Shown: positions 27,877 to 62,633, counted from the first letter of the stretch. The stretch is 64,000 nucleotides of DNA from Nitrososphaerota archaeon (GCA_041641305.1 JBEPYN010000002.1:320001-384000), one strand, 5' to 3'. The notes: generated by a model from the letters alone, not told the origin. Numbers and translations are program-made.

Positions 27877-27894
27877 ATTTAACCGACTTAGGCC
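27877..27894 (-). promoter_or_regulatory. Element promoter GGCCT-N7-TTAAAT (PCNA gene)
   Basis: GGCCTaagtcggTTAAAT, 24 nt before ATG 27853. Confidence 0.75.
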
Positions 27895-27955
27895 AACAAG
27901 GGAATGTAACTATCTCCTCATAAGAACGCTGGTCTTCATACAACCTTCAAAAACC

Positions 27956-28594
27956 TTATCCCTGACCATTATTGTTCGGCTCTTCCTCATTTTCGTCAAA
28001 ATCGAAATCATACCGCTTAACATCCCCTCTTCTCTTTCTCGGCTTCTCTCTTAGTTTAAGACCACACATAGGGCAGTAAGGCTTCTCAAGCTTGAGCTGA
28101 AAAGCGGTAAGACAATGGGAGCAAAAACCATGACCTTTTCTATAGAAAGGCTGTCTCGACGCTGGATAGAAAAAGGCAAGCTTCTCGTCAGGCTTATAAG
28201 ACATACACAGCATATTATCCTCAACCCATAAATCAACCCTGATACGGTTGCCGTCCCAGCCGTTGAACAGGCCAGCATATTGGCTCGGTATCCTAAGCCT
28301 CAGCCCCGCTGTCGTGTCGTAACGGCCCGTAAACCTCTCCCCCCTCACAACCGCTATATAATCGCCCTTCGGAGGTAACTCAAATTCCTTAAAAACACGG
28401 ATAGGTAGCTTAAGCCTCAAAGTGCCAGACGCTTCATGTATAATCCTCGCCTCCATGCCTTCAAGAACCTTCTTAGGCGAAAAATCATCAATACGGCTAT
28501 TCATAGCATTCTCTTTTCCATGAAACGATAAAGGCTTTGCCTGAACATCTTCATCAGGTTTGGGTGGCTGAAAATCCTCTTCACGACCGTTCAT
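27956..28594 (-). CDS. AbrB-like protein with C-terminal family Zn finger
   Basis: LRLKLP/LRLRIP repeats; GHGFCSHC..CPMCGLKLREKPR. Confidence 0.65.
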   Translation of the reverse strand: MNGREEDFQPPKPDEDVQAKPLSFHGKENAMNSRIDDFSPKKVLEGMEARIIHEASGTLRLKLPIRVFKEFELPPKGDYIAVVRGERFTGRYDTTAGLRLRIPSQYAGLFNGWDGNRIRVDLWVEDNMLCMSYKPDEKLAFFYPASRQPFYRKGHGFCSHCLTAFQLKLEKPYCPMCGLKLREKPRKRRGDVKRYDFDFDENEEEPNNNGQG

Positions 28595-28792
28595 AGCTTA
28601 TTCTACTTGATGAAATTATAAAAGCGTTAAACAATCTCTGAAAACCAGAAATTCTGGCTCTCCACGGCTTAGAAAGCCAAAATACCTCAAAAAACCATGT
28701 CATAAACACTTTGGCCACAAAAATGCAAAATTTCGCCACTACCTGGCGTAAATCGTCGAAATAAAAACAAGGAGTTTAGCGAAAGCCATACT

Positions 28793-29263
28793 TCATACCT
28801 CACTCTCCGTCGTCTTCGCCTTCTCCTCGATAAGGTCTGCGATACGTTTCAGGAAATCAGCATCGCTCTCATCCAAGGTCATCCAGCTCTCCATCGGAGG
28901 AATGAAACGTAGCTCGTAATAATGTAGAAAAGGCATCATACCACCCTTGAAAAACACCCTCAGCTTGAACCCTCTCTTCTCTCCAGCCAACCTAAGCCAC
29001 CTCGTTATCCTGCGGTCTGGACAAACAAATTTCCGAGCCAGCCCTTGTCTCTCAACCTCGTCCAGCCTCTCCATGGCCGCGTCTCTCAAATCAGGGCTTC
29101 TGAGGAAAACCAGCAGACAACGGCACCCATCCGTGGCAAACATAAACCATAGATGCGGATGGTTATCAGTCGTGGCGGTAACAACCTCCAAAAACGGCGT
29201 ATCATTAGAAATTCCTGTTCTCACATCCCTTATAGCGTTCACATCACAGAGCAAGGAAACCAC
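28793..29263 (-). CDS. Hypothetical protein
   Basis: ORF coupled to 29239-29481. Confidence 0.5.
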   Translation of the reverse strand: MVSLLCDVNAIRDVRTGISNDTPFLEVVTATTDNHPHLWFMFATDGCRCLLVFLRSPDLRDAAMERLDEVERQGLARKFVCPDRRITRWLRLAGEKRGFKLRVFFKGGMMPFLHYYELRFIPPMESWMTLDESDADFLKRIADLIEEKAKTTESEV

Positions 29264-29481
29264 CTCTCTACCTCACTATTATAGGGCAGAAAATCCTCAA
29301 CATCCTTACCCGCCATCATAGCCCAAAGCCTGAAATACAACACGAAATTCAGAAGCCTTCCATAGCTGGGCCGCTCCCTCAACCCGTCCAACTTCAGCAA
29401 CAATTGAACAGGCATGTCGTTGCTAAATCTTCTCCACACTTCTTCACACCAATCCTGAACCGAACGCTGATGAACGCTCAT
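29239..29481 (-). CDS. Hypothetical protein
   Basis: Element promoter at 29505-29522, 24 nt upstream. Confidence 0.6.
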   Translation of the reverse strand: MSVHQRSVQDWCEEVWRRFSNDMPVQLLLKLDGLRERPSYGRLLNFVLYFRLWAMMAGKDVEDFLPYNSEVERWFPCSVM

Positions 29482-29599
29482 GTCTGAAACATCTCAACCT
29501 AAGAATAAAAACAGAAAAGGCCTGCCCAGTATTTGTCGGCCTTCACCAATTCAGACATGGCCTTAAATAATTAAATCCATCCAAGGCATAGCGTATTGT

Positions 29600-30043
29600 A
29601 TGTTGTCATACGTGGCCGCAATGCTATACGCACACGTCCTCAGAGACCATGCACCGCCCTCTCCCCCAATAACGATATCAATTGATGCTTTCAAGGCTTA
29701 TGTCAAGGAACTTGGCGTAATTGACATGATAGGTGAGGAGGAGGTTGAGCCGTATCTGAGCATGCTCGCTAAACTCGGATTTATTGAAAAATATGAAAAC
29801 AACAAGATAACGATACATGAGGAGGGCTGGGAACTACTCAACTCTCATTGGTTTGAACTTAGAAAGTCATGGCTGAGGAAAATAAGTATCGTTAATGAAT
29901 TGTTGTCTAAGATTGAGGACAGCCTTACAGTAAGTCGGGGCTCACCGAATAGGGCGGGAGAAAACACCGTAAAATTAGTTCTGACCGCGCCACCCACAGC
30001 ATCTATGACGATTGTATTCATGTTCGACACCTCAGGCCGCTAA
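29600..30043 (+). CDS. Winged-helix protein
   Basis: YLSMLAKLGFIEK..KITIHEEGW; promoter at 29559-29576. Confidence 0.65.
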   Translation: MLSYVAAMLYAHVLRDHAPPSPPITISIDAFKAYVKELGVIDMIGEEEVEPYLSMLAKLGFIEKYENNKITIHEEGWELLNSHWFELRKSWLRKISIVNELLSKIEDSLTVSRGSPNRAGENTVKLVLTAPPTASMTIVFMFDTSGR

Positions 30044-30452
30044 ACTCCTTGAATACATGAGAAGAGCGTTTTCAAAAAACCGTCTCTGCTCATTTGTAAG
30101 AGCTATCTCTGTGATGATGTGGTTATCAAGGTTATCATTTGAGAAAACGGCGACGTAAAAAACACCAGAAGACGCCACCGCCATCAACCACTCCTCTACA
30201 TCTTCGAAAACCCCTAAATATTCTTCGCTGGAATGAAGCAGAACCCTGACGAGGAGCCTTCCATCAAACATGAAATTGCAACAATGAGGGGTTTCAACCT
30301 TTTCCACAAAAACTACTATACACGGGCGCCCACGTATTACTGCGAGTTTAATATCACTCTTGGGGAACGACGACAAGCTCCACCACCTCTCCATCCCTCA
30401 TAAATTTCTTCAAAGCTTCAGGCTTTGAAGAAACACGGTAAACTGTTTTCAT
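30032..30452 (-). CDS. Hypothetical protein with apparent frameshift in the G4 run at ~30362
   Basis: Promoter 30476-30493 points to ATG 30452 (MKTVYRVSS..VVVP); removing one base joins it to KSDIKLAVIRG. Confidence 0.55.
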
Positions 30453-30493
30453 ACCTGCTTCTAAACCCGCTAAACATTTAAACAGCTCAGGCC

Positions 30494-30853
30494 TCATTCT
30501 TCAACCAAACCCGTCCGAGGACGCATTTGGAGTGCTTCGCTGATATGCATGTATGTATAACTGTTGAAGCTGAGGCTCTGCCCCCGATTTATCATATGTG
30601 ATTTATTCAATTCAGAGGCTTTCTTCTCCGCTTCGTCCTGGGTGTAAGCGGTGTCCACAACCGTAAACTCACGCATGTAACCGTTGTCAAACTCCTGAAG
30701 GACGAGGTAAAAGCTATGGCTGTCGCATACGACAGCACCCATATCGCTTAAATAAATTGCTTGTTTACCGACAAGCGGTTTAGAACATAGAAGGCATGAG
30801 CCATAGCGGGCTGTGATGCTGTAAACTCTCGGAGGCTTCAAATAATACCTCAT
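30494..30853 (-). CDS. Hypothetical Zn-finger protein
   Basis: CLLC...CDSH. Confidence 0.55.
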   Translation of the reverse strand: MRYYLKPPRVYSITARYGSCLLCSKPLVGKQAIYLSDMGAVVCDSHSFYLVLQEFDNGYMREFTVVDTAYTQDEAEKKASELNKSHMINRGQSLSFNSYTYMHISEALQMRPRTGLVEE

Positions 30854-31077
30854 TCAGCCTCATCCTCGTCTACACAGTGTTCCACTACTTTTGAGCCTGC
30901 TCTGCTCATCTGCTCGTAAAGCCAATCCTCAACAGCCTCGTATTGCGCCCGATACTTCTCAAATACATGGTCAGCCCTCGGGTCTGATACACAGTCTCCA
31001 CATACATAGAAAATCAGCTCAATCTCGAAATCAAATTTCTCTTTCTTACCGCAAACCTCACATTTATACACACTCAT
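30850..31077 (-). CDS. Small Zn-finger protein
   Basis: CEVC...CGDC; promoter at 31101-31118. Confidence 0.65.
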   Translation of the reverse strand: MSVYKCEVCGKKEKFDFEIELIFYVCGDCVSDPRADHVFEKYRAQYEAVEDWLYEQMSRAGSKVVEHCVDEDEAE

Positions 31078-31102
31078 GCCAACAAATTGTCAAGCCATGT
31101 AT

Positions 31103-31330
31103 TTAATCGGATGAGGCCCCCGCATGTTTTCTATCCATAAAATCACGAATTAAAAGCTCTCTATGACCGCATTTAGGACATTCATAGTCAATAGGTTCAC
31201 AATCTACATCCTCAACATAGCTTGGCTGAATATTCGGCGATGGAAAGACCTTGAAAATTTTGACCACGGAGAGATGCTCTAACAAATATGTAAGCTTCTC
31301 TCCACAGCCTGGACACTTAAACCTCGCCAC
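31103..31330 (-). CDS. Small Zn-ribbon protein
   Basis: CPGC...CPKC; SD-like GGAGGTG upstream. Confidence 0.6.
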   Translation of the reverse strand: MARFKCPGCGEKLTYLLEHLSVVKIFKVFPSPNIQPSYVEDVDCEPIDYECPKCGHRELLIRDFMDRKHAGASSD

Positions 31331-32300: not shown

Positions 32301-32339
32301 AAGTTATCCAACCCTAGCCAAACTACCTTCCTGTTTTAT

Positions 32340-32573
32340 TCAATCAGCAACGACAATCTCCAGCACTTCTCCAGTGAGAAGCTTCTTCAAACTCTCCAAC
32401 TCCCTTTGTGCCTTTGGAGAAAGCGACTGAAAAACCTCTTCGTCGAGGTAAACGGGTATTGTGCTACTGCTTGTCTCTAACTCGAGAAGCTCCTGAGCAA
32501 CGTCATCACTCACCTCGCATACTTTCTTCCATTCAATCAAATAAACCGCCCTCGTCTTTACCATATCGTTCAC
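32340..32573 (-). CDS. Hypothetical protein
   Basis: Promoter at 32610-32627. Confidence 0.55.
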   Translation of the reverse strand: MNDMVKTRAVYLIEWKKVCEVSDDVAQELLELETSSSTIPVYLDEEVFQSLSPKAQRELESLKKLLTGEVLEIVVAD

Positions 32574-32629
32574 CTACCCTTTCATCACAGGTATAGACCT
32601 CTCTCATACATTTAATCCCATGAGGCCAG

Positions 32630-33670: not shown

Positions 33671-33752
33671 ACCCTAAAGAAAATAGTTGATTTTTATTAC
33701 CGCTAAAGGCCATATTCATAAAAAAAGGTGAAGGGTTTTAGGGGCTGGGTGT

Positions 33753-33974
33753 TTAGATATCCACCCATGCCCCCACAGTCTTGTCTCTGACATGGACGAT
33801 GGGGTCTCCAGCCGCTGGCTCGACTATTGCTATATCCTCGGGCTTCTCGGCAATCTTCAGAACCTTTTCCCTGATTGGTTTAGGCATGTTTCTGACCTTC
33901 TCTTTGACGCTTTTTGCTCCGCCCTTCTTTCGTCCCGACTTTCTCGCCTTCGTCTTTGTCTTTTTCTTAGTCAT
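33753..33974 (-). CDS. Small basic protein with Lys-rich N-tail; paralog of 39798-39968
   Basis: MTKKKTKTKARKSGRKK...DPIVHVRDKTVGAWVDI. Confidence 0.65.
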   Translation of the reverse strand: MTKKKTKTKARKSGRKKGGAKSVKEKVRNMPKPIREKVLKIAEKPEDIAIVEPAAGDPIVHVRDKTVGAWVDI

Positions 33975-34024
33975 GGCAGGCGATAATATCTCTCTCAAGT
34001 AAATAACTCTCAGAGGCCCGCTGT

Positions 34025-34040
34025 TGTCAACAAGTTGACA
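34025..34040. promoter_or_regulatory. Palindromic operator TGTCAACAAGTTGACA
   Basis: One of four near-identical intergenic palindromes. Confidence 0.65.
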
Positions 34041-34052
34041 GCATTTAGGGCC

Positions 34053-35270: not shown

Positions 35271-35324
35271 CGTGGCTAAACTTGCAAAAATAGCAATAAA
35301 ACCGGCTAAGGCCAGAGGCCCTGC

Positions 35325-35672: not shown

Positions 35673-35844
35673 GTTCTATGAAATCCTCAGCATCCGGGTC
35701 ATAAGTGCCTACATACATAAACTTGTGTTCGAATTCCTTGCCACAGCTACACTTCACTTTGACGACGCCGATTTTCTCCCACCAGTCAACTTGGAATTCA
35801 CCGGTTAGAGGCAGCCCCTCTCCGCAGTATGGGCATTCGACCAT
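35659..35844 (-). CDS. Small Zn-ribbon protein
   Basis: CPYC...CSC. Confidence 0.6.
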   Translation of the reverse strand: MVECPYCGEGLPLTGEFQVDWWEKIGVVKVKCSCGKEFEHKFMYVGTYDPDAEDFIEHGCP

Positions 35845-35850
35845 GAAATA

Positions 35851-36066
35851 TCACCCCAACCACAGCCTGAGCTCATCTGTTGTCGGCAGCATCTCCCCAA
35901 GCTGTATGCCTGCGCTTCTGGCCCATATATGTAGGTCAAGGAGAAACTGAACAAGCATAGTTGTATTAGCTGTCAAGTTCTCGAGCTTCAGTTGCAAAAA
36001 TTTTGGCGCATTTAGCTGGGTAAGACGATTTGTCAGGTCAGTTTTCCATGTTTCAAAACTTCTCAT
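35851..36066 (-). CDS. Hypothetical protein
   Basis: Likely start MRSFETW at 36066. Confidence 0.45.
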   Translation of the reverse strand: MRSFETWKTDLTNRLTQLNAPKFLQLKLENLTANTTMLVQFLLDLHIWARSAGIQLGEMLPTTDELRLWLG

Positions 36067-36520
36067 GTGATACACCACTTTCACCTCTCTTATAACATTT
36101 AGAGGCCATGTAGGAATTGAATGCTTCTTCAAAGTCCTCGAAATCGGGCAGTTTTCCAGTCTTCAGCCATTTCTGAAAGATGTGGCTGGCGAGCTGCTCC
36201 AATCTGGCGTCTGAGACCGAGTAGTGTTTGTTTCCTGTGTTGCTTGAAACCAAGGTGATGTGTTGGATGTCGTGTTGAGAAGGGTGAATGTAGAATTTTT
36301 CCCCATGTGTGCCGGCTTTTGAGGACCTGCTGTAGTCTGGTCTTAGGGGACGATAACATGTGAAACATACGACATAAACCGAAGTAATTCCTCCCATCCT
36401 TGTATGCCGCCAATCAAATATCAGAACGTTTTCAGGTTCGACTGGTTTTTCAATCATTTCCCACACCACCTCATACGCATTTCGTGTTTGGGGAGAAATA
36501 TAACCAGATGAGGCCATCAT
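36053..36520 (-). CDS. Hypothetical protein
   Basis: Promoter variant AGCCT-N7-TTAAAC (36544-36561), 24 nt before ATG 36520. Confidence 0.6.
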   Translation of the reverse strand: MMASSGYISPQTRNAYEVVWEMIEKPVEPENVLIFDWRHTRMGGITSVYVVCFTCYRPLRPDYSRSSKAGTHGEKFYIHPSQHDIQHITLVSSNTGNKHYSVSDARLEQLASHIFQKWLKTGKLPDFEDFEEAFNSYMASKCYKRGESGVSHEKF

Positions 36521-36570
36521 AGTTTCTGAAATAGCGAACTCATGTTTAAAATCTGGAGGCTTTGACGAAG

Positions 36571-36687
36571 TTACATAAGGCATGAGGACCAGCCGCAGTC
36601 AAGACAGGTCACGCATCTACCTTGGTTTATGATACGCTCTGACTCGCACTCTGGGCATTTTCGCGGGAAATTCATCCGACCATCCAT
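36571..36687 (-). CDS. 38-aa Cys-rich peptide resembling the class II RNR C-terminal tail (not in ORF track)
   Basis: MDGRMNFPRKCPECESERIINQGRCVTCLDCGWSSCLM; promoter 36711-36728, 24 nt upstream. Confidence 0.72.
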   Translation of the reverse strand: MDGRMNFPRKCPECESERIINQGRCVTCLDCGWSSCLM

Positions 36688-36691: not shown

Positions 36692-36707
36692 TGTCAACAT
36701 GTTGACG
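36692..36707. promoter_or_regulatory. Palindromic operator TGTCAACATGTTGACG
   Basis: Lies between the TATA and ATG of the 38-aa gene. Confidence 0.65.
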
Positions 36708-36770
36708 GAAATAAAGAGGTTTAAGGCCCTACTATAACGGGATAAATCAAGGCGCTTCATCTGAAAAGTC

Positions 36771-37999: not shown

Positions 38000-38017
38000 A
38001 TTTAAACGGATAAGGCC
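38000..38017 (-). promoter_or_regulatory. Element promoter GGCCT-N7-TTAAAT
   Basis: GGCCTtatccgtTTAAAT. Confidence 0.75.
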
Positions 38018-38262
38018 AAGATAAAAAATGGTCAAAGGCTCCTGAAGACCATCCAAATAAACCACGGCATATGGGCCGGGGGTTTTGAAACCCCGATGGA
38101 CCGAACGGGACTTGAACCTTATCGGCCAGCTCAATTTCTTGGAGCTGACTCGCGACCTCCCGCAAGCCAAGCGGGCGCTCTTCCATGTTGAGCTACCGGC
38201 CCATGCTGTCGCTTCGGCTTGCTGGCTAAAGAACCTTCATGGCCAAGCACTGCTTGGCTTAT

Positions 38263-39797: not shown

Positions 39798-39968
39798 TCA
39801 GAGGTCAAGCCAGCCTCCGACAACTTTACCATTCACTATCAGTAGAGGGTCTAGCCCGACTCGCCTAATCTCATAGCTTTCAATATGCACAGGCTCGAGG
39901 GCTTTCTGCAGAGCTTTTGGCACCTCTTCTGGTAGTTTTTTCTCCTGTTTGACAACTACTTGGCTCAT
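39798..39968 (-). CDS. Small protein, paralog of 33753-33974
   Basis: Promoter 39992-40009, 24 nt before ATG 39968; DPLLIVNGKVVGGWLDL. Confidence 0.65.
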   Translation of the reverse strand: MSQVVVKQEKKLPEEVPKALQKALEPVHIESYEIRRVGLDPLLIVNGKVVGGWLDL

Positions 39969-39993
39969 GGCTATACCTTCATGCATCATAGAT

Positions 39994-40668
39994 TTAACCG
40001 GATAAGGCCTTATCCAAAGCCTCTAACAGGTTCTCCAATTCTCCATGCATCTCCGCTCCATATTTCTCCATTTTGTGGCTAAGCTTGGCTGAAAGAGGCG
40101 TCAGGTGGACCGGCCTGCCGAGCCTAATCGCGGACCATGCGGTTGATTCTGAGTCGCCCCCCTCATCCGCCTCCACGACCACGACGATGTCAGAAATCAG
40201 GGCTATCGTCATGTTTCTGAGGATAAAGTCTCTGGGCTGCGTCCTGTGTCCATCAGGGAATTGGCTGACCGCGAGGTGCTCGCTCATGATGAGGCTTTGT
40301 AGGCCTTTGTTTTCTGGTGGATAGACACGGCTTAATGGTGTGCCGAGAACGGCGGCCGTCTCCCCGCCGCTGCGGACGGCTTCTAAATGAGCCGCGGTGT
40401 CAATCCCTTTCGCGAGGCCGCTGACAATAATCACCCGTTGTCTGCAGAGCCATTTGACTAGCTCCCGTGCATAGTTCAGACCTTCTTCGCTTGCGTTCCT
40501 TGTTCCCACGACGGCTACACGGGGGGTCTGAAGAGGGATACGCATTTTTCCGCAGACGTAAAGCCTGTTTGGGGCGAGTCTCCTCTCGACGCGGTTTAGC
40601 GGTCTTCCGAGGAGCTGCTCCACCGTGATGCTACGTGCCTGTCTGTAGGCTCTGGATTGCGTCGTCAT
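39994..40668 (-). CDS. dprA: DNA-processing protein DprA (Smf), core domain
   Basis: VAVVGTR, VSGLAKGIDTAAH, FILRN, VVVEA. Confidence 0.92.
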   Translation of the reverse strand: MTTQSRAYRQARSITVEQLLGRPLNRVERRLAPNRLYVCGKMRIPLQTPRVAVVGTRNASEEGLNYARELVKWLCRQRVIIVSGLAKGIDTAAHLEAVRSGGETAAVLGTPLSRVYPPENKGLQSLIMSEHLAVSQFPDGHRTQPRDFILRNMTIALISDIVVVVEADEGGDSESTAWSAIRLGRPVHLTPLSAKLSHKMEKYGAEMHGELENLLEALDKALSG

Positions 40669-44785: not shown

Positions 44786-44980
44786 CTAACCTGCCTCCGC
44801 CTTGGATATAACTGGATGAGGCCTTGTGCTGGTTTCGAGCCGGTTCCTCTTCCTTCTCGGCTTCTTTCTCAACAGCGTGCCGCAGTCAGGGCATCTAATG
44901 GCCCTTGTCTTGAAGTATGTCCTGCATCTCGAGCAGAAGCGGTATCCAAGGGCATAGCAGCCGTATCCGCTTCTAATCAC
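44786..44980 (-). CDS. Family Zn-finger protein
   Basis: GYRFCSRC..RCPDCGTLLRKKPR. Confidence 0.75.
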   Translation of the reverse strand: MIRSGYGCYALGYRFCSRCRTYFKTRAIRCPDCGTLLRKKPRRKRNRLETSTRPHPVISKAEAG

Positions 44981-45366: not shown

Positions 45367-45478
45367 CAAAATCTTCTCGGAGGCGCATACATTTATTCCG
45401 ATGAGGCCATTTAGCTAATGGACCATCCAGCCACAACCGCTACCCACGACCTCATGAAAACCATGAGCTAATCGAAGA

Positions 45479-45510
45479 ATTTAATTGATAAAGGCCCTAT
45501 CCGCTTAAAT
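45479..45510. promoter_or_regulatory. Bidirectional element promoter sharing one AGGCCC core
   Basis: ATTTAA-N7-AGGCCC-N7-TTAAAT; ATGs at 45455 (-) and 45535 (+). Confidence 0.7.
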
Positions 45511-45534: not shown

Positions 45535-45744
45535 ATGGAAGTGAGGAAAACAGCTAGGAACAGCTATGCAATGGGTTACAAGTTTTGTAGAAGATGCCAC
45601 CTATATGTGAAAACGGAGTCAAGGATTTGCCCAATCTGCCACAATCATGTGCGAAGCGGCCCGAGGAGCAGAAGGTTGAAGCAAAAAATTCGTCTAGATA
45701 AAATGGAGAATGTAGGCTCAACATCCCTCAATCCATCAGCGTAA
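45535..45744 (+). CDS. Family Zn-finger protein
   Basis: GYKFCRRC..ICPICHNHVRSGPR. Confidence 0.75.
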   Translation: MEVRKTARNSYAMGYKFCRRCHLYVKTESRICPICHNHVRSGPRSRRLKQKIRLDKMENVGSTSLNPSA

Positions 45745-46970: not shown

Positions 46971-46995
46971 GGTTTTAGGGATTATAATGATGGAT

Positions 46996-49338
46996 TTAAG
47001 GGGATGAGGCCTCTGTCGCTACAACATCATGTATGTTTACTGTCATCGCTCCATCTATTCTTATGAAGGATGCTATGGCCTTGAATGTCTTCCCTTTCTT
47101 GAGAAGGTCCCGTGGCCCTTGATAGGTTGCTGGCTCCAGCCTAGCCCTGAAGCTATCATCGACAACCACTACCGCGAAACCGGGGTAAACCTTCTCAACC
47201 CTGATGGTGTGAACCTTGGATGGAGCTTTGGCTGCTTTCACCGCAGCTTTCGCCACATACCTGTCACCAGCCTTCACCACCAGCCCCTCGCCGACAAGCC
47301 TGTTGATGGACATTCTCACGATATCCGGGTCGTATTCGACAGCTTGCAGGGCATCGGCAAAGGATAATCCTTTTTCCCCAGAGTTAAGTATCAGCTCGTA
47401 GAGCCTCTTCCTGCATGCAAATAGCTCGCCGTGGGATATCTTACGCGCGGTTACATAAACAGGTTCGCCGTCCTCGGCCTGAACATATTCTGTCGGCTTG
47501 GTCTGCCTAAGCCATGGCCATGGCTTACCCGGCTCAGGCTCCGGCCCCTTCCTACCCAGCTTGAACCCCTCTAGTTTCTTAGCTACTTTCTCCAACAGCT
47601 TCGCCATCTTCTTCGCCCTCCGGTAGCCCTCGGCGAAGTAGTATTCGTCAACCGTGTCTTCGGCGAGGAGGATGGTCACCTTGCCCGGCAGCCTTCGGCC
47701 GGTTCTGCCCCTTCTCTGGATGTAGCGTATCCCCGATATCGCCGGCTCGTAGAAAATCACGTATCCGCACTCCGGTATGTCTAGCCCCTCCTCTCCAATG
47801 GATGTGGCGACGAGTATGTTGAACTCTCCTTCCCTGAACCCTTTCAGCACCCTCATCTGCTCCTCTTGGCTCATCTTGGGCCCTTCCTTGCCCTCGCCCT
47901 TGCCGACGAACATCTTAGCCCTGTAGCCGAGCTGGCTGAGCCTCCACGTAACCACCTCAGCCGTGTTCCTGATGTTAGCGAAGACCATGACCCTGTCGCC
48001 GGGTTTCTCGCTGAAGTGCTGCGACAGCCTGTTGAGCAAAGCCTCTACCTTTGGATGGTCTAGGCTGCATTTCTCCGCCAGCTCAGCTATTCTATGGAAG
48101 TCCCCGCTTGACGCGAGCATTCTATGGCTCCTCAGCTCCGAGGACTTTACGTCGTTGAGGTATTGCCTCAGGCTGTATACATGCTGGCTCTCTATCAGCT
48201 CTAGCGCATGGTATAGGCTGAGGACCTCGGATATCATGGCCATGTAATGCATGTTCCGCCCCTTTATTCCAGAGCTTATCTCGGCCCTCAGCCTATTCAT
48301 CGCCTGCACGAGGGCGGCTCTGGTGACGTTTTTCAGAGGCATCCTCACTACGCCGAAGCCCTGTAGCTGTCTTACCCTGTTCTCTATCGCTGCCTTGATT
48401 GCTGACCTTATCTCCTCATACTCCTTTGGTAGCTTGACCCTGACCCAGTCAACCTTCACCCCGGGTATGTAGCTCGATACTTCTTCATGCTCCTCGCTCC
48501 TCCACGATATCTTTTCTATCCATAGGTTCTTCACAACCTCCATCACCCTGTCCTCGTCGCTTCCGGGGCTGGCTGTGAGAGCAAGGATGCGGGGCCATGG
48601 GCAGCTTCTGACGTATTCTGAAGCCAGCCTAGTGTATGCGTACCGGCTTCTGCTTCTATGGCACTCGTCAAAGACTAGAAGCGCGAACTCCTCAAGCCTT
48701 ACCCAGCCGCGCCTATAGTCGTTGTAAGCCGTCTGGGGTGTGGAGAACACTATCCTGACGGATGGGCTGCCCCAAGCCATTTTCCTGACGCTTTCACCGG
48801 TTTCCCCAGTTACTGCGACAGCCTCGTCCTCCGAAATGTTTAGGTGTTTGAGGAAGCTCTGCCTGTGCTGGAGGACTAGAGGTTTTGTAGGTGCCATAAC
48901 AAGTATCCTGCAGCCGGGGTGCCTGTGAAGTAGTTCGGCTGCAGCTAGCTCAGCTATCACAGTTTTCCCCAATGCCGTTGGCAGAACCACCAATGTATTG
49001 TTTTTGAGAGCTTCCTCAACCATGTTCCTCTGGTATTCTCGGTCCTCTATTGTGTCCGGCTTAACCATCGGATGGCTGACAAACACATGCCTATCAAGAG
49101 GCTGCTCAACAACTTTCCTATCCTTTTTCTTCTCCGCCTCTGTCTTCTTCGGGGGCGGTGGAGTTGTTAACAGGCCTTCAGCAACCTTAACCGCGTAAAT
49201 ATGCTTACAGTCTCTTACCAACTTTTTTGCTCTGAAGACATAGTCTGGGCATGTGCATGAGAATTTTTCACCATCAAAAGTCACCCTATAGATTTTTGTG
49301 GGGTCTTCTTGGCTGGGTATGTCCCAGTGGACCGGCAT
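46996..49338 (-). CDS. Hef/FANCM-like helicase with N-terminal SWIM Zn finger, no ERCC4 nuclease
   Basis: CTCPD..CKH SWIM; REYQ, PTALGKT, DECH, TASPG, EEGLDIP, QRRGRTGR. Confidence 0.92.
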   Translation of the reverse strand: MPVHWDIPSQEDPTKIYRVTFDGEKFSCTCPDYVFRAKKLVRDCKHIYAVKVAEGLLTTPPPPKKTEAEKKKDRKVVEQPLDRHVFVSHPMVKPDTIEDREYQRNMVEEALKNNTLVVLPTALGKTVIAELAAAELLHRHPGCRILVMAPTKPLVLQHRQSFLKHLNISEDEAVAVTGETGESVRKMAWGSPSVRIVFSTPQTAYNDYRRGWVRLEEFALLVFDECHRSRSRYAYTRLASEYVRSCPWPRILALTASPGSDEDRVMEVVKNLWIEKISWRSEEHEEVSSYIPGVKVDWVRVKLPKEYEEIRSAIKAAIENRVRQLQGFGVVRMPLKNVTRAALVQAMNRLRAEISSGIKGRNMHYMAMISEVLSLYHALELIESQHVYSLRQYLNDVKSSELRSHRMLASSGDFHRIAELAEKCSLDHPKVEALLNRLSQHFSEKPGDRVMVFANIRNTAEVVTWRLSQLGYRAKMFVGKGEGKEGPKMSQEEQMRVLKGFREGEFNILVATSIGEEGLDIPECGYVIFYEPAISGIRYIQRRGRTGRRLPGKVTILLAEDTVDEYYFAEGYRRAKKMAKLLEKVAKKLEGFKLGRKGPEPEPGKPWPWLRQTKPTEYVQAEDGEPVYVTARKISHGELFACRKRLYELILNSGEKGLSFADALQAVEYDPDIVRMSINRLVGEGLVVKAGDRYVAKAAVKAAKAPSKVHTIRVEKVYPGFAVVVVDDSFRARLEPATYQGPRDLLKKGKTFKAIASFIRIDGAMTVNIHDVVATEASSP

Positions 49339-49394
49339 CTGAGTGGAAGAAGGCCCTAGACTCTTAAATATTTTGAGTGACCTAGTGACTTCGG

Positions 49395-50098: not shown

Positions 50099-50416
50099 TT
50101 ATATTTCCAGCGCCTCTCCGCCTTCTTCGGAAGCCGGGTTGAGTCTCTCTATTGCGTCTAGAACCTCTTCAAGCCTTTTATCTTCTAGTAGCCTTCTGAA
50201 CCTCTCCAGCTCATCACGTCTCCTCAGCATGAGGCCTCGTCTCTTAGTAGGCGCCCCGTCTTCTCCGACAGGGTTGACCTCGACCAGTAGTGAAGCAGAC
50301 CTGCCACGCGAGGCCGGAGCCTTCACCACGAATATTCCCGGAGAGCCTTTGACTGGGACACGCTGCCAGTCCTTACCTGTCTCAAGAAACCTCTCAAGCG
50401 CGTCCGTCATAGCCAT
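50099..50416 (-). CDS. Conserved archaeal hypothetical protein
   Basis: KDW..PGIFVVK.P..EVNP..TKRRG pattern. Confidence 0.6.
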   Translation of the reverse strand: MAMTDALERFLETGKDWQRVPVKGSPGIFVVKAPASRGRSASLLVEVNPVGEDGAPTKRRGLMLRRRDELERFRRLLEDKRLEEVLDAIERLNPASEEGGEALEI

Positions 50417-50448
50417 GGCTTCAATGCTTCAAAGCAGGAGATAACCTT

Positions 50449-51069
50449 TCAAGGCCACCTGTTTTCGGCACGTATAGTTTGGAAGGCTACCGCGAGTATG
50501 ATGTATCCTGCGATTGAGATATACACGCCCACGAATACTAGGGCCAGCACCGCTCCCAAAAACAGTAACAGCCCGCTCGTCTTGAACGTTTTAATACCCA
50601 GTCTGTCGCCCACTATGTCGAGCGATTTCTTGAGGAGGAAAGCTGATGCAATGGTGAATATTGCGGATATCCCAATCACGGCTATGGCTCCGAATAGATA
50701 ATACGAAGGAAACGTGAACGCGTACGTGTAGGGGTCGGGGGAGCCCAGCACCGAGGCGTAGGCTGGAGGCCACGCCAGCATCAGCAGAACCACAGCAACC
50801 ATTCCAGCAACCGTAGCCGCGGCGCTGTATAGCGCAAACCTGTATATTTCGGGTTGTTTAACAGCCTCTGATATACGCTTCAACGCTATTACGACAGCTA
50901 TAATCCCAGCAGTTGTCAGCGGCCCTCCGATAGCAATCGTGACAATCGGTATGTAGGCCAGCAGCATGGAAAACAGCAGGCCGACTGTGGATATGATTGC
51001 TCCGGTTGAGCCAATCTTCCGAGCGTTAGCCAACATTGCCGCCTCCATACCACAGCAAATCATGCTCAC
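50449..51069 (-). CDS. DUF996-like membrane protein
   Basis: About 5 TM helices; ALKRIS, FKTSGLL, ILAVAF. Confidence 0.75.
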   Translation of the reverse strand: MSMICCGMEAAMLANARKIGSTGAIISTVGLLFSMLLAYIPIVTIAIGGPLTTAGIIAVVIALKRISEAVKQPEIYRFALYSAAATVAGMVAVVLLMLAWPPAYASVLGSPDPYTYAFTFPSYYLFGAIAVIGISAIFTIASAFLLKKSLDIVGDRLGIKTFKTSGLLLFLGAVLALVFVGVYISIAGYIILAVAFQTIRAENRWP

Positions 51070-53926: not shown

Positions 53927-53927
53927 T

Positions 53928-54953: not shown

Positions 54954-55142
54954 GAACATCGCATTCTCAATACTGGCTATTGTGGAGTGTAAGGACCTCG
55001 CTCACATTACCGTGAATTAATGACATGGATTAAAGAGTATGAGGCCATCCTCCGACCTCTGCTAAACATGTCTCTGAGTTGCAGCGTTACAGAAGTGGTA
55101 AACGTTTTACTACAACCTTCTACACATAGTATGTGAAGAGCT

Positions 55143-55289
55143 GTGGCGGGCAAGAAGGCTGCTAAGAAGATGGGGTCGAAGCCGGCGAAGAAGAAGGTGA
55201 AGGCTAAGAGAAAGGCTAAACCTAAACCCGCTCCGCCAGCTCCCTCCGAGAAGCGGGCGGAGTCTGCTGCTGAAGCGCCGGCGATGTAG
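55143..55289 (+). CDS. 48-aa Lys/Ala/Pro-rich basic protein (histone H1 tail-like; not in ORF track)
   Basis: MAGKKAAKKMGSKPAKKKVKAKRKAKPKPAPPAPSEKRAESAAEAPAM (GTG start). Confidence 0.6.
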   Translation: MAGKKAAKKMGSKPAKKKVKAKRKAKPKPAPPAPSEKRAESAAEAPAM

Positions 55290-55836
55290 CCCCAACCCCA
55301 CCCTCATTATTTTTTACATGTATCCCGAGCTTCTCTCTCATTATCTTGGACTTTCGGCATACAGCTACTGTTGAGAAACCGGATGCTCTGGTCACCTCGG
55401 TCAAGGAGCAGCTTGGTGCGGCTGCAATATACAGGGCCGCGGTGGCGGCGATGTATGTGTGTTCTCCATATCTATGCAGGATGCTCGCTGCCTCGTCTAC
55501 GTAGGTCTCTAGACCAAGCTTGGTGGCTAGCATCCTTAGGAAGAGTTGTGCTGACTGTCTCTGGTCAGCCACGGTGCTGTAGCCAAGTGCCTCCGACACC
55601 TTTCTCAGCGTCTTCAGGAAGCCCCTCTTCCTCTGGAGTATTTCCTTTAGCTGGATAGGGTACTGGTTATGTTTGCAGACAATGTAGAGAACCGCGGCCA
55701 CTAGGGTCTCCCCATTCCTTCCCTGCGACAAACCCATTCTCCTGAGCCTTTCCAGCATCTGTCTAGCCAAGTCTACGAGGTGGCTGGGTAACGAGAGGGT
55801 CTCGGCGTAGCTTGTCAGCAGCTCGTCGAGCCTCAT
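55222..55836 (-). CDS. TFB/TFIIB-like protein, cyclin repeats only
   Basis: L.LP......A, GR..ETLVAAVLYIVCK..YPI.LKEI; second repeat IAATAALYIA..LTEV..ASG.S; no Zn ribbon. Confidence 0.82.
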   Translation of the reverse strand: MRLDELLTSYAETLSLPSHLVDLARQMLERLRRMGLSQGRNGETLVAAVLYIVCKHNQYPIQLKEILQRKRGFLKTLRKVSEALGYSTVADQRQSAQLFLRMLATKLGLETYVDEAASILHRYGEHTYIAATAALYIAAAPSCSLTEVTRASGFSTVAVCRKSKIMREKLGIHVKNNEGGVGATSPALQQQTPPASRRELAERV

Positions 55837-56016
55837 CCAGTCTTTTTAAACACCTCATGGATAAAAGCTGATGTGGATGCCATCCATAAAACTTGAAATC
55901 ATGTTATCTAACGCCGGTTTCATGGATGGATATGTGGATAATGAGGGGGTGAAGGTGGTTAGTGGAATCGAAGCAGATGATTCGGTTTAAACTCTCTGGT
56001 CTAAACCATTTTTAGC

Positions 56017-56702
56017 ATGTGGGAAAACATTTTGACTGGGATGGTTAAACCATACGCTAAGCTTTACATTCCTGCTTGGATGGCTGTCTATGATAGGCTT
56101 AGACGTGCTAAGGGTAGGCCTTTTAAGACGACTTTGCTGTCGGAGGAGCTGGGGATACCTAGGACGTCGGTGAATCAGGCGCTTCTAGCGCTCCGTGTTA
56201 AAGGGCTCGCCCGCAAGACATCCAATGGCTATGTTTACGATGTCTTCCAAACCGAGCCTGTGAGCAACGGGGGAATTCCATGTTATTCATGTGGCTCTAA
56301 AAGCTATAGGACGGTCTCCGTCACCGTGGCAGGCTCTGAGAAGCTTCTCTGTCTTAATGTCTCTCCCATATCGTTGAACTAGCTCTGAGAATCGCAGGCC
56401 GGCTCAAGAACCTTGAAGGCGGAGACATCCAGAGGCATACAAAGCGGGAAAAGGCTGCGATATATGGCAGGTTTGTAGGGCGTCTCATCTCCTTGGTTGG
56501 GCGTCGGGGTAGGGTTTGCGCCACCTCCCTTGGTCTTCGTCATGGGCTGTCGAAGAGAGAGGTTAGGAGAGTATTGGATAAGATGGCTCCAAAAATGGGC
56601 TGGGTTATTGAGCGGAGGTCTGGCCATCTCTATGTGAGGCCCGGGGAATCTCTTAGGGAGCCGGAGCAGGTTATCGCATCGACTATAAATGGTCAGGGAT
56701 AG
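56017..56702 (+). CDS. HTH + Zn-finger + wHTH protein with apparent frameshift at ~56356
   Basis: Adding one A changes CLNV* to CLKCLSHIVELALR..., open through to 56702. Confidence 0.65.
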
Positions 56703-59112: not shown

Positions 59113-59191
59113 ACCAATTTAGTAATCTGAGTTGAGGGCTTTAAACTCTCGAGGCCTAGAAAACCTTATTGAAGGAGGCATGTAGAATGCT

Positions 59192-59398
59192 CTAAACCGC
59201 TTCAACCCCCTTTTCTATGGGTTCCGCATCATCCGGCTTAACAAGTATAACGTTCACGTCTTTCTTCTTTTTCTTTGGTTTGCTTCTCATGGTGACGCCG
59301 CATTCTGGACATCTATGGGCGTCGGTCTTCCGGTAAACCATGCATCTACTACAGTATCTGTAGCTGAACACAGCTCTTTTCCAGCCATTCCGTAACAC
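59192..59398 (-). CDS. Family Zn-finger protein
   Basis: YRYCSRC..RCPECGVTMRSKP. Confidence 0.7.
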   Translation of the reverse strand: MLRNGWKRAVFSYRYCSRCMVYRKTDAHRCPECGVTMRSKPKKKKKDVNVILVKPDDAEPIEKGVEAV

Positions 59399-59448
59399 GT
59401 TTTAGGAGAATCTCTGGGTTTTCTGTTGGGAAACCCTTTGATAATAGT

Positions 59449-60543
59449 CTATTTCCTTCTCTCAAACTTTCTTCTTAATGCTATGAATGCTGCTCCTAGT
59501 ATTGGAATACTTACCAATCTCTCGATTACTCCGATATTATCATCCGGCTTTGGGAATTGGAAGTATGCACTAATCCCATCTATTGCTTGTTGAGTTATGC
59601 ATGTTATATCATTTATATCATTACAATTGGTAATAATCCTCAATGCTAAGAATGATATGATTACTATTGGTGTCCACACTACTAGTGGTAAAAATGCACT
59701 CTCTCCATACATCGCTATATATTTGTATAATAGATATGGAATTGACCCTAACTTATCTAATCTATTTCCTCTCCATAATTTTTTTCTTATTGCCTCCATC
59801 TCCCCTATGAAGAAGTGCGATGCTTCATTGAACAATAATCTGGTCTCATAATTCTTCCGCAATTGGTTATATATCTTTGATACCTCTTCATAATTATGAT
59901 TCTTATCAAGGAACTCTTCATCTACTATTATATTCCTCTTTACAAGACCTAAAAACTCAGACCTTTCTCTCCATTCAACATTATAAAACTCGACATTTGT
60001 TAGATCTACTCCTTTAAACGATACTGTTTGTAAACGTAATGGATTATCTGCTTTTCCAATGAACCTAACTTTTTTTCTGAATGTTGAATAATCAAATCTT
60101 ATTGTAATATCATCACTACATTCTAAAGTAAAAATATAGGAAAAATCAACTTCATCCATGAAATCTGTATATGCGAAATTTGCTTCCTTGAATTTTGCTC
60201 CATTGAAATTTGCCTCCTCGAATTCTGCTCCAATGAAATATACAGGTTCTTTAAATTCAATCTTTAAGCCTTTTTCCCTAATAGGCCTAAAATCAAAACT
60301 AGGAAGGTTAAACCCTATACAGAATAACGGTTCCCCCTTTGTAATAGCATCTTCGACAAGCTTATAAAACTCCTTACGTACTTCTTCCTCATGGATGGAG
60401 GAGGATCTCCAATAATCTTTAGCATGAAATATACAATATCCATTACTTATAGGGTTATGAGGACATTTATAATCTTTAAGAGTTCCAACCTTCCTATCCC
60501 GATATTCAATAGTATAGTTGCACATATCTAAAGAGACAAACAT
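59449..60543 (-). CDS. Pentapeptide-repeat membrane protein, AT-rich
   Basis: YCIFH, AEFEEANFNGAKFKEANF repeats, YGES plus C-terminal TM helices. Confidence 0.82.
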   Translation of the reverse strand: MFVSLDMCNYTIEYRDRKVGTLKDYKCPHNPISNGYCIFHAKDYWRSSSIHEEEVRKEFYKLVEDAITKGEPLFCIGFNLPSFDFRPIREKGLKIEFKEPVYFIGAEFEEANFNGAKFKEANFAYTDFMDEVDFSYIFTLECSDDITIRFDYSTFRKKVRFIGKADNPLRLQTVSFKGVDLTNVEFYNVEWRERSEFLGLVKRNIIVDEEFLDKNHNYEEVSKIYNQLRKNYETRLLFNEASHFFIGEMEAIRKKLWRGNRLDKLGSIPYLLYKYIAMYGESAFLPLVVWTPIVIISFLALRIITNCNDINDITCITQQAIDGISAYFQFPKPDDNIGVIERLVSIPILGAAFIALRRKFERRK

Positions 60544-60549
60544 CTCCTA

Positions 60550-60678
60550 TTAAAATATAATACCATAAAACGCCCTCCCCATCATTGTGCCGCACTCGGG
60601 GCACCTGTCGGACATCACCATCCTATACTCCATACATCTGCTGCAGTATCTGTAGCCGTCCGCATATCTCCGGGCCAT
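60550..60678 (-). CDS. Family Zn-finger protein, 3'-truncated (42 aa, not in ORF track)
   Basis: MARRYADGYRYCSRCMEYRMVMSDRCPECGTMMGR|AFYGIIF. Confidence 0.65.
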   Translation of the reverse strand: MARRYADGYRYCSRCMEYRMVMSDRCPECGTMMGRAFYGIIF

Positions 60679-60821
60679 GGGGATATGCTATGTTCAGGTG
60701 CATTTAGCTGGATATGTGGTCAAGAGGCCTCCACCATAGCTGTGTCCTCGTTGCCGAGAAATGAGCTGAGGTATTGTTCTGAAGCGTCTAACTTTGACTA
60801 GGGGCTGGAGTTCGTTGAAGC

Positions 60822-61031
60822 TCATATTCTCGCCTTCAATAGCTTCGCGGCCTCTTCCGGGCTTAGCCCAAGCTTCTTAAAGCTGTTCTGGTAGCCGCAT
60901 CTCGGGCAGACCACGTATACCCACAGCCTTGCCCCTGCTCCGTTTACCGGTACTCCTCCGCTGTGTGGGTAGCTCTCCACGCGGCCGCCTTCGAGGCCGT
61001 CTCCACAGCTTACGCATCTAAGAGTTTTCAT
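60822..61031 (-). CDS. Small Zn-ribbon protein
   Basis: CVSC...CPRC; promoter at 61055-61072. Confidence 0.7.
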   Translation of the reverse strand: MKTLRCVSCGDGLEGGRVESYPHSGGVPVNGAGARLWVYVVCPRCGYQNSFKKLGLSPEEAAKLLKARI

Positions 61032-61054
61032 GCTCCTACTGTGTTCTGGGATGG

Positions 61055-61086
61055 ATTTATCCGGATTAGGCCTTATCCAGATATAT
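61055..61086. promoter_or_regulatory. Bidirectional element promoter sharing one AGGCCT core
   Basis: ATTTAT-ccggatt-AGGCCT-tatccag-ATATAT; starts at 61031 (-) and 61113 (+). Confidence 0.7.
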
Positions 61087-61112
61087 CCATGGCCAATCTA
61101 TTGGCCGGTGGA

Positions 61113-61535
61113 GTGTCTACTCTGGACGACTATGGCGAGCCCCCTGCCGATACTGGCATTACGGCCGAGTATGTGATGAGGCTTATCGAAAGCGGTCAAG
61201 GTAGACCGGTTAAGATAATGGGTAAAACGGTGGGATACCTTTACCCTACCCGTTTCGGGAAACTCTATGTAACGAAGAGAGCTGATTCGGAGCTTTTCCT
61301 GAAGTATGACAGCTTCGGTATAAGCGACTCGGTGCTCCGCATGGTGGCTGCAAACGGCGCTGAGAAGGTGGCAATCATCCATGCCGGCGTCGATGTATAT
61401 ATGAGCGATGTCCAGCAATGGTTCACAGACGCTATACGGCACTGGTGGGCTGAGGGCCACGAGCTTCAGCTACATCTTCCTAGGAGGCTGATGAAAAAGC
61501 TTCCACGGGAGCGCCAGCTTCAAGAGACATCTTAA
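61113..61535 (+). CDS. Hypothetical protein
   Basis: GTG start inferred from promoter spacing. Confidence 0.6.
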   Translation: MSTLDDYGEPPADTGITAEYVMRLIESGQGRPVKIMGKTVGYLYPTRFGKLYVTKRADSELFLKYDSFGISDSVLRMVAANGAEKVAIIHAGVDVYMSDVQQWFTDAIRHWWAEGHELQLHLPRRLMKKLPRERQLQETS

Positions 61536-61779
61536 TCCTGTTTATCATCTCGTCGAGGACCCTTAGCCCCTCTCTCCTCATAGAGACTTCATCTCGTGTT
61601 TTCGATTGGCTCAAGCTTTTCACGAACATGTTTCTGAGTAAAGCCATTTCCCCCTCAAGTATCTGTAGAAGTTTCTGTAACTCTGACGGGTCTCCACCGT
61701 TTCTTAGAATCGAGAGCGCGGCGTTGTAGGCCTCAGCAGCCCTCTCGGTGAAGATGAATAGTCTGTCTCCGGACCTCAA
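61480..61779 (-). CDS. Hypothetical helical protein, paralog of 62200-62436
   Basis: TATCTGG-TTAAAT 24 nt before TTG 61779. Confidence 0.55.
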   Translation of the reverse strand: MRSGDRLFIFTERAAEAYNAALSILRNGGDPSELQKLLQILEGEMALLRNMFVKSLSQSKTRDEVSMRREGLRVLDEMINRIKMSLEAGAPVEAFSSAS

Positions 61780-61834
61780 CGGATATTGTGGGGGTGTCGG
61801 TAGATTTAACCAGATAAAAAACCGCTCTTCTCGT

Positions 61835-62152
61835 CTACATTGATTTAATGAGGAACTGAAGGTCGCCATTAATATCATAAACGGCTAGCAGCTTTCCCCC
61901 GCTGCTTTCAGCCCATTTTCTGACCGCCTCGATTATGATGGTTCTCAGGGCGCGCCTGTCTCCTCTCTGATAAGCCCTGAACGCGTTCTCATAGGCTTCT
62001 TGGTCAATTTCATCCAGCAGCTTTATTTCGAGTGGCTCGGGGTGGCCATGTTGCATTCGATAGAGTCTAATGGGGGCTATTAGCTTGACGTGTATGTGGC
62101 TTTCGCTGAAGACGGCGAGGGTGTCAGCCCTCGAGGTCTTTGAAGCAAGCAT
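61835..62152 (-). CDS. Hypothetical protein
   Basis: ORF with TATA-like ATAAAT upstream. Confidence 0.5.
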   Translation of the reverse strand: MLASKTSRADTLAVFSESHIHVKLIAPIRLYRMQHGHPEPLEIKLLDEIDQEAYENAFRAYQRGDRRALRTIIIEAVRKWAESSGGKLLAVYDINGDLQFLIKSM

Positions 62153-62199
62153 TCGCCGTATCTTTGTCGCTGTTGGTGGATTTATTGTTATAAACAGGC

Positions 62200-62436
62200 T
62201 TAGGTAAGCTCGTTGTCTATCGCATTAATCAGCATCCTAATCACGACTAGCCCCCGCCGTCTAAGCCTGTAGGCGCGGCCGCTCTTGACCGAGTCGAGCC
62301 TGAGCTCGGCTACATCCGCTTCTGACGAGAGGAGGTTCCTCAGCCTCCTCATGCTGGCCCTGTCTCTTCTGCGCAGGGCTGCAGCAGCTTCGCGAACATA
62401 CTTGGCCGCATCCTCTGTCAGAATTGCTTCGGTCAC
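62200..62436 (-). CDS. Hypothetical helical protein
   Basis: Similar to 61480-61779. Confidence 0.55.
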   Translation of the reverse strand: MTEAILTEDAAKYVREAAAALRRRDRASMRRLRNLLSSEADVAELRLDSVKSGRAYRLRRRGLVVIRMLINAIDNELT

Positions 62437-62484
62437 GCCATAACTACGGGCTGGCCTGCTGGATTTAATGTTATGAGGTTGGCG

Positions 62485-62504
62485 CCTGTCAACATGTTGA
62501 CAGG
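62485..62504. promoter_or_regulatory. Perfect 20-bp palindrome CCTGTCAACATGTTGACAGG (operator)
   Basis: Intergenic, between two TATA-like boxes. Confidence 0.7.
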
Positions 62505-62633
62505 TAAGCGGCCCATGAGATTATTTAAGGGGATAAAAATGCCTGCGCTGGACATAGGGTAGAAGGATTAGACGCAACTGATAGATAGGGCTTTATCCCG
62601 TTAAATCCATCGCAATTATCTGGTTGTTTTGGG

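Follow-up and report, generated by a model that had tools for sequence, protein, structure and literature searches.

Thaumarchaeal integrative and conjugative elements (ICEs) all encode a homolog of TFIIB, the archaeal TFB (Krupovic et al. 2019, PMC6563490), and the divergent ICE TFBs have been proposed to alter promoter specificity (Abby et al. 2018, PMC5797428). The UV-inducible promoters of Sulfolobus carry an essential, non-palindromic box, A(N)TTTC, at -44 to -39, upstream of a weak B recognition element (BRE) (Le et al. 2017, PMC5817253). Some archaeal activators, Ptr2 and TFB-RF1 among them, act by recruiting TBP or TFB (PMC5569661), and a GTC element downstream of the TATA box is known from rudiviruses (reviewed in PMC5569661). 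The DNA analysed here, called the window throughout, is the 64-kb stretch JBEPYN010000002.1:320001-384000, part of the genome of Caldarchaeum, a hot-spring archaeon. Likeness to the C. subterraneum chromosome stops at about 26800, where an island of ~116 kb begins that extends to about 142.7 kb in window numbering, ~79 kb past the window end; judged by its genes, it appears to be a conjugative-type (ICE-like) island of Caldarchaeales. Along this island, a conserved, element-specific sequence surrounds the TATA box in fixed register. Roughly 30 island genes have this promoter signal in common, and the island probably switches them on together.

A fixed-register sequence around the TATA box

The initial annotation had listed 22 copies of a GGCCY box placed seven nucleotides upstream of a TATA-like hexamer, and all 22 exist, the coordinate given for each being the low end of an 18-mer. 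The full consensus reads, in order, GGCCT, YATCCGN, TTAAAT and NYAT. In its strict form, GGCCY-N7-WTWWAT, the motif occurs 19 times in the window against 0.35 +/- 0.54 expected (100 dinucleotide shuffles, maximum 2). All 19 strict sites lie at 27.9-61.1 kb and none in 1-27 kb. Spacing is equally telling: 26 matches occur on the island at N7 and 1-13 at other spacers, and no N7 peak was found in the rest of the genome. A weight matrix of 22 columns, trained on 21 of the originally listed sites and one further site at 44806 and applied with a cut-off of >17 bits, retrieves 28 sites from the 116-kb island and 2 from the other 1.54 Mb of the genome. Seven of the 28 strong sites lie beyond the window and, because the matrix was trained on window sites, constitute an independent, out-of-sample set. 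One of the two strong sites outside the island falls within a decayed island relative on contig C1 of the same genome; this 20-kb segment (C1:514600-534500) adjoins a tRNA-Pro gene and holds that one strong site.

The gap from the TATA hexamer to the start codon has a mode of 23 nt and is 21-28 nt at most sites. TFB is known to read positions 3-7 bp from the TATA box. If the 8-bp TATA box is taken to start one base before the hexamer, as in the host profile, GGCC lies at -11 to -8 from it, outside the BRE, and the YATCCG core occupies the BRE position; the GC-rich box thus abuts the BRE, as one half of the initial annotation had it, and does not replace it, as the other half did. The BRE position is pyrimidine-rich, with C at -4 and -3 in 19/32 island sites. 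The motif also reaches downstream of the TATA box, T being present at +9 in 19/22 sites versus 23/113 host promoters, and outside the 22-mer the sites have no sequence in common. At two places, divergent promoters use one common GGCC. Once these shared divergent sites are removed, no mirror half-site remains, which marks the motif as oriented and asymmetric and led to rejection of the idea that it is half of a palindrome for a dimeric regulator. A hairpin was rejected as well (z-scores -1.4 to 0.6, no stable structure).

Host promoters provide the natural comparison. Among 113 leaderless host promoters, the TATA-to-start distance peaks at 22-26 nt, the same distance as at the island sites, GGCC is present at the motif position in 0/113, and the BRE is A-rich, with A at -4 in 67/113 (59%). 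The TATA part of the island promoters is therefore ordinary and the flanks are private. A loose form of the motif gave 11 matches before host genes at the right spacing and 4-9 at wrong spacings; one attractive match, before PolB1, was discarded because its conservation fails in 10 further genomes of the genus. The motif also located genes that had been overlooked: ORFs (open reading frames) predicted from it, of 38 amino acids from 36687 and of 55 amino acids from 46970, are present, and the 55-amino-acid gene is also called in a relative.

Outside this genome (G000), the motif is kept before homologous genes in eight assemblies (G002, G003, G004, G007, G012, G013, G031 and G037); at orthologous promoters in relatives, GGCC and the TATA box are conserved and the spacers have diverged. 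The strongest consensus sites are found in G002 and G003, where near-identical 22-mers recur. The most informative relative is G037, which belongs to another host family and carries a 20-kb syntenic segment with ten sites of the form GGCCA-CWACTCG-WTWWAT (9 strict matches against 0.9 expected), situated 20-26 nt before orthologs of the genes for ribonucleotide reductase (RNR), PCNA, the XPB-like helicase, NurA and others. The helix of host TFB1 is identical in G000 and G037. Since GGCC and its spacing never change and the core varies by lineage, this identity in both hosts points to a reader that evolves with the element. Viral contigs gave no match to the motif, and two further pieces, G013:C1 and most of G030:C2, turned out not to be element DNA. 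Overall, the comparisons support the view that the motif is real and marks a class of promoters peculiar to the element, with spacing of the TATA type and a BRE region that is not purine-rich.

The G037 variant word also occurs ~45 times in a dispersed repeat (L254-L283), at least 6 times upstream of the same IS-like ORF (285 amino acids in L255, no Pfam match). Among 75 genomes, this repeat was found in G037 only, and it may represent an insertion element that uses the island's promoter class.

A cyclin-only TFB and its distribution

The island encodes a TFB of 204 amino acids (55222-55836, minus strand) that has no Zn ribbon, B-reader or linker and in which the helix-turn-helix of the second repeat is altered. 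Its description as cyclin-only proved correct: it has two cyclin folds, repeat 1 matches PF00382 (E 6e-13), and an AlphaFold model (mean pLDDT 86) comprises ten helices and finds as its top Foldseek match 1D3U_B, the TFB core of P. woesei bound to TBP and BRE-TATA. The reading frame opens only 3 codons before the ATG. The closest homologs are annotated in Ca. Caldarchaeum, and in 4/4 known homologs, down to 49% identity, the truncation, the place of the start and the gene's own promoter are alike; given this constancy and a dN/dS of 0.16-0.24, indicative of purifying selection, the gene is not a broken one. The Zn ribbon of TFB recruits RNA polymerase (PMC7289017); the PF08271 ribbon scores above cut-off only in the two host TFBs, and no TFB-type ribbon does so on the island. 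No element-encoded TBP was found.

The fold of the canonical TQxxIA...GVTEVT(I/V)RN region is present, but Gln is replaced by Thr/Ser and Arg by Cys/Ser in all homologs. We take these two to be the BRE-reading residues of canonical TFB, as in 1D3U. The recognition helix differs between the homologs while the motif is constant. The gene's own promoter (55857-55878, minus strand, 24 nt before the ATG) has CAT in the BRE position, TTTTAT and CCAT, and lacks GGCCT. The earlier statement that the motif is missing here accordingly applies to the GGCCT box; the inner part (CAT, TTTTAT, YCAT) is kept in 4/4 homologs.

All four known homologs, including the one at 49% identity, reside on motif-bearing DNA. 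However, the co-occurrence of motif and TFB in related elements, which the initial annotation had offered as a test, mostly fails in the other direction. The eight motif-bearing assemblies named above yielded no third TFB, only host TFBs, and G037 has a single TFB. Three contigs (G013:C30, G037:C33 and G002:C21) run across the usual TFB position without one: in the first two, one or two unrelated genes separate HerA from a conserved gene for a 105-amino-acid protein, with no TFB between, and the third extends from the pilus module through to Hef-Hjc with neither TFB nor NurA-HerA. G002 carries ~49 kb of the conserved core in four contigs. Since related islands keep the motif where the TFB was not found, the cyclin-only TFB is probably not the switch; since these assemblies are fragmented, gene order here is fluid and the kin are not independent, the link is lowered and not removed. 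Profile searches of 5.8 billion proteins returned 3 clusters of the TFB family, versus 161 for the 105-amino-acid protein, many of them perhaps chromosomal. Other short TFB-like matches (P0038, P0021, P0054 and P0011) are on short contigs in which no motif was found, and one short metagenomic contig (L163:352-1660) has two adjoining, divergent cyclin-only TFB-like genes. On the comparative evidence, the cyclin-only TFB would be accessory, carried by some of the elements and most likely acting as a modulator or decoy.

Candidate readers of the motif

Sequence comparison gives about an even chance to the following reading: GGCC would be a fixed-position activator box on weak-BRE promoters, and the motif would serve as shared promoter for a regulon carried by a family of large conjugative-type islands of Caldarchaeales. 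At the sites, the box is non-palindromic and keeps a constant distance to the anti-consensus BRE downstream of it, the start-site position being deduced from the spacing, by which transcripts would be leaderless and GGCC would fall at about -41 to -38. Host TBP would bind the TATA box and host TFB1 would bind the anti-consensus BRE poorly, and a sequence-specific activator seated on GGCC(T/A) and the adjacent core would recruit TFB/TBP and turn the genes on together. This activator would most likely be element-encoded, because the core beside GGCC varies among element lineages and the host TFB1 helix does not. Of the two readers first proposed, the element TFB or another element activator, the latter is then the better choice, the former being only weakly favoured now that co-occurrence mostly fails; the cyclin-only TFB might instead serve as a decoy that occupies TBP-TATA complexes without recruiting polymerase.

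Several observations weigh against an element-encoded activator. No candidate is common to all motif-bearing pieces, and winged-helix genes are patchy among them. The most widely shared protein, that of 105 amino acids, has at best weak structural models (rudiviral SIRV1 ORF131, Z 6.2, rmsd 3.7 over 82 residues; PC4-type folds, Z 3.9). GGCC persists in small chromosomal remnants (G007, G012, G016, G031), so that a host reader is conceivable, and the downstream YAT is better explained by a factor that straddles the TATA box, e.g. a TFB core, than by an upstream activator alone, which leaves it without explanation. Three regulator candidates were tried and set aside: 27956-28594 is a mobile gene present in several copies, the winged-helix protein at 56017 occurs only in G000 and G013, and the 105-amino-acid protein has no clear fold match.

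In the sigma-swap put forward by the initial annotation, the element TFB would replace host TFB and read the whole motif; a partner would supply the Zn ribbon in trans, the reverse of the arrangement in Sulfolobus TFB3. The motif does lie on both sides of the TATA box, all four TFB homologs are on motif-bearing DNA, the closest fold is a TFB core on TBP and BRE-TATA (1D3U), the gene is under purifying selection, the presumed BRE-reading residues have changed alike in every homolog, and the TFB promoter is free of GGCCT, as would be required of a bootstrap gene. Thaumarchaeal ICEs add precedent: all of them encode TFIIB homologs (PMC6563490), for which a role in altering promoter specificity has been proposed (PMC5797428). 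Nevertheless, such a swap seems rather unlikely: the eight motif-bearing assemblies have no third TFB, three of them with contigs that span the slot, and the strongest sites of all are in two of these, G002 and G003; the databases hold only 3 TFB clusters; the polymerase-recruiting ribbon is missing, with no substitute above cut-off on the island; the helix differs between homologs and the motif does not; and GGCC, 8-11 bp from the TATA box, is beyond the known TFB reading range (3-5 bp; PMC7289017). In its boldest form, which is likewise doubtful, a ribbon-less TFB core with a rewritten recognition helix, carried by the island and aided by a polymerase-recruiting partner in trans, would define a second archaeal core promoter class composed of the GGCC box, a pyrimidine BRE and the downstream YAT. 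If true, this second class would redirect host RNA polymerase to the island and amount to a sigma-like switch in archaea, and the absence of the TFB from relatives would be an effect of fragmented assemblies.

A host activator, for instance a DNA-damage or stress regulator, might read GGCC instead, the island having placed its repair and replication genes under a program of the host. The targets are in keeping with this, being largely repair and recombination genes (Hef, Hjc, NurA-HerA, XPB-like, DprA, SPL-like, RNR), and GGCC-N8-TATA survives before Hef, Hjc and the 105-amino-acid gene in chromosomal remnants of several genera; the ~45 copies of the variant word in the G037 dispersed repeat also fit. 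Yet the host's own genes are without the motif (0/113, the loose form at 11 versus 4-9, and a PolB1 site that fails in 10 genomes), and host TFB2 was rejected as reader and is unlikely to be one, since it was not found in G037, G031 or G039, so this account too is unlikely, though not negligible. More improbable is a strong constitutive or early promoter that host factors alone read, that recombination homogenises and that an element repressor of the rudiviral Aca8 type shuts off. In archaeal viruses, early, small, anti-defence genes do share a conserved regulatory sequence that surrounds the TATA box (PMC11065993), many island targets are small orphans, the 22-mers that recur in G002 and G003 are nearly identical, and concerted evolution could produce lineage-specific cores. 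The viral promoters, however, have a strong purine-rich BRE where that of the island is pyrimidine-rich; nothing outside the 22-mer is common to the sites, GGCC is fixed at orthologous sites while the spacer diverges, and spacing this strict is more in keeping with contact to the basal machinery than with an operator. Three sites have no clear ORF behind them, which leaves some room for a non-promoter site (methylation, recombination or partition) located near starts by chance. GGCC is a restriction-modification site in some thermophilic archaea, a further point for such a role. It is nonetheless very hard to credit for a motif that is oriented, keeps a fixed spacing to a TATA hexamer and has a 23-nt mode to the ATG; the island shows no excess of GGCC (observed/expected 0.79), no stable hairpin forms, and a separate palindrome, described below, suits a partition role better.

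Sites, setting and related systems

Sites are cited by their 18-mers and lie on the minus strand unless marked (+). The leftmost, 27877-27894, stands 23 nt before a PCNA-like gene (27074-27853) whose divergent product has no Pfam match (atlas features 0.94); in the G037 relative, a clearly recognisable PCNA is encoded behind the variant motif. The same 23-nt gap separates 29505-29522 from an 80-amino-acid ORF, 29559-29576 (+) from a winged-helix-like ORF of 147 amino acids, 30476-30493 from the ATG of a short ORF, the near-consensus site 31101-31118 from a 75-amino-acid Zn-finger ORF, and the weaker 33694-33711 from a 346-amino-acid ORF that has a variant motif at its orthologous G037 site. 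Site 32610-32627 precedes an ORF of 77 amino acids. A small basic protein is encoded 26 nt beyond 34001-34018 and another 23 nt beyond the top-scoring site, 39992-40009; the two (33779-33973 and 39798-39968, approximate ends) have similar C-termini and a homolog in G037. The XPB/Rad25-like helicase gene follows 35296-35313 at 25 nt, and the radical-SAM (SPL-like) gene follows site 38000-38017 at the same distance. Between these, the degenerate AGCCT site 36544-36561 has an in-frame ATG at 23 nt, and weak site 36711-36728 lies 23 nt before the 38-amino-acid, Cys-containing ORF that starts at 36687.

The original list, although sound in what it contained, had missed five sites. These are 36498-36515, a strong one inside ORF 36053-36583; 44806-44823, placed 22 nt upstream of the ribonucleotide reductase operon, of which DprA is part; the weak 50439-50456, conserved in G009 and placed before the gene for the 105-amino-acid protein (50099-50416); the strong 55029-55046, which has no ORF behind it, points at the 3' end of a convergent M48 peptidase gene and may possibly specify a small or antisense RNA; and the weak 63658-63675, before a 158-amino-acid ORF. 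The 105-amino-acid protein, usually encoded beside Hef/Hjc in its 161 clusters and directly behind a TBP gene in L211, is possibly a single-strand DNA-binding protein, to judge from its modelled structure.

Further along, 45391-45408 precedes a 130-amino-acid ORF, and the divergent pairs 45479-45510 and 61055-61086 (both strands) are built on one common GGCC each (45493-45496 and 61069-61072). Site 46994-47011 is 23 nt before the gene for the 55-amino-acid membrane peptide and a stand-alone DnaG-N-like domain. Site 49352-49369 (+) lies 25 nt before Hjc, which is divergent from the Hef helicase gene, and its GGCC and TATA are conserved in G009 and G031 with a diverged spacer. Site 59139-59156, before the nurA-herA operon, is conserved in G009, L010 and, as the variant, G037; 62589-62606 (+, GGCTT) is 27 nt before an 82-amino-acid membrane ORF. 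Among the products of motif-driven genes are the PCNA-like clamp, XPB-like helicase, SPL-like enzyme, RNR with DprA, Hjc, NurA-HerA, ParB and numerous small orphans. Small, basic double-Zn-ribbon paralogs (44786-44980, 45535-45744 and 59192-59398), whose ribbons are not of TFB type, are present in most related elements, and a tRNA-Ala-like gene with an intron (38097-38202, minus strand) was missed by ARAGORN.

Beyond the window, the island encodes HerA/TrwB/TraG-family (VirB4/VirD4-like) ATPases and a T2SSE (pilus) ATPase; pilin-like ORFs were recognised by inspection, and ParB and a RadA-like ATPase are encoded as well. TFB and ParB are 56 kb apart, and a Hel308-like helicase gene precedes ParB. 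The genome has no PF00589 match and so no tyrosine integrase by this measure, other recombinase families not having been searched, and no clean direct repeat was found that would serve as an att pair. The left edge bears only the decayed 3' part of an intron-containing tRNA-Arg(UCU)-like gene (26972-27044, +), and no Rfam match was obtained there. On these grounds, present-day mobility stays putative. In G003, G005 and G008, the same polB gene is immediately preceded by a tRNA-Arg gene, an arrangement suggestive of integration at tRNA-Arg and later rearrangement. The island also carries another motif, the palindrome GTCAA-N4-TTGAC, which has 19 of its 28 genome copies there (in the window at 34026-34039, 36693-36706, 62488-62501 and 63118-63131, with 15 more beyond), often forms arrays ~59 bp apart and is conserved in relatives; it is likely a ParB-type centromere or operator.

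Little is known of how archaeal conjugative elements turn on their genes, and for the promoter-specificity role proposed for their divergent TFBs (PMC5797428) a DNA target has been lacking. The island family supplies a sharply defined promoter class, with ~30 sites, none of them in host genes, and a natural variant in a second host family; as it also includes relatives with and without the TFB, the ICE-TFB question becomes decidable in vitro with recombinant thermostable proteins. The comparative evidence warns against taking a neighbouring TFB as the reader, and the motif itself is of practical use for locating missed small genes and true starts on such elements. ICE-encoded TFBs and element-wide promoter motifs have already been published; the island motif appears new, no description of it having been found in the literature searched, coverage of which was incomplete, and the available parts of the thaumarchaeal ICE accounts likewise containing no promoter motif (PMC6563490, PMC5797428).

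Like thaumarchaeal ICEs, the locus is a sizeable island that encodes VirB4/VirD4-like ATPases as well as a pilus ATPase, pilin-like proteins, ParB and a TFB of divergent sequence. It differs in its Caldarchaeales host, in a TFB that is cyclin-only and patchy among relatives, in the lack of a detected tyrosine integrase or clean att pair, and in gene order, TFIIB being directly upstream of ParB in most thaumarchaeal ICEs. The element TFB resembles the archaeal TFB core (P. woesei, PDB 1D3U/1AIS) in its two cyclin folds, the Gly-Arg loop of repeat 1 and the C-terminal helix-turn-helix, but it is without Zn ribbon, B-reader and B-linker, its recognition helix is rewritten and repeat 2 is shortened. 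With the ups/tfb3 UV box of Sulfolobus, the motif has in common a short, non-palindromic box ~40 bp upstream of the start, a weak BRE, target genes for DNA transfer and repair, and a truncated TFB in the wider system; the sequences differ, the regulon there belongs to the host and here is confined to the element, and Sulfolobus TFB3 is truncated the other way from the element TFB, retaining its Zn ribbon but not its DNA-binding part. Finally, archaeal viral early promoters (Bhoobalan-Chitty et al. 2024, PMC11065993) and the rudiviral GTC element likewise give many small genes of one mobile element a lineage-specific conserved sequence surrounding the TATA box, and serve to predict missed genes and starts. 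The BRE of the viral promoters, however, is strong and purine-rich, and Aca8 is their presumed repressor, whereas those of the island combine an anti-consensus BRE with a GC box upstream, on an element of conjugative type.

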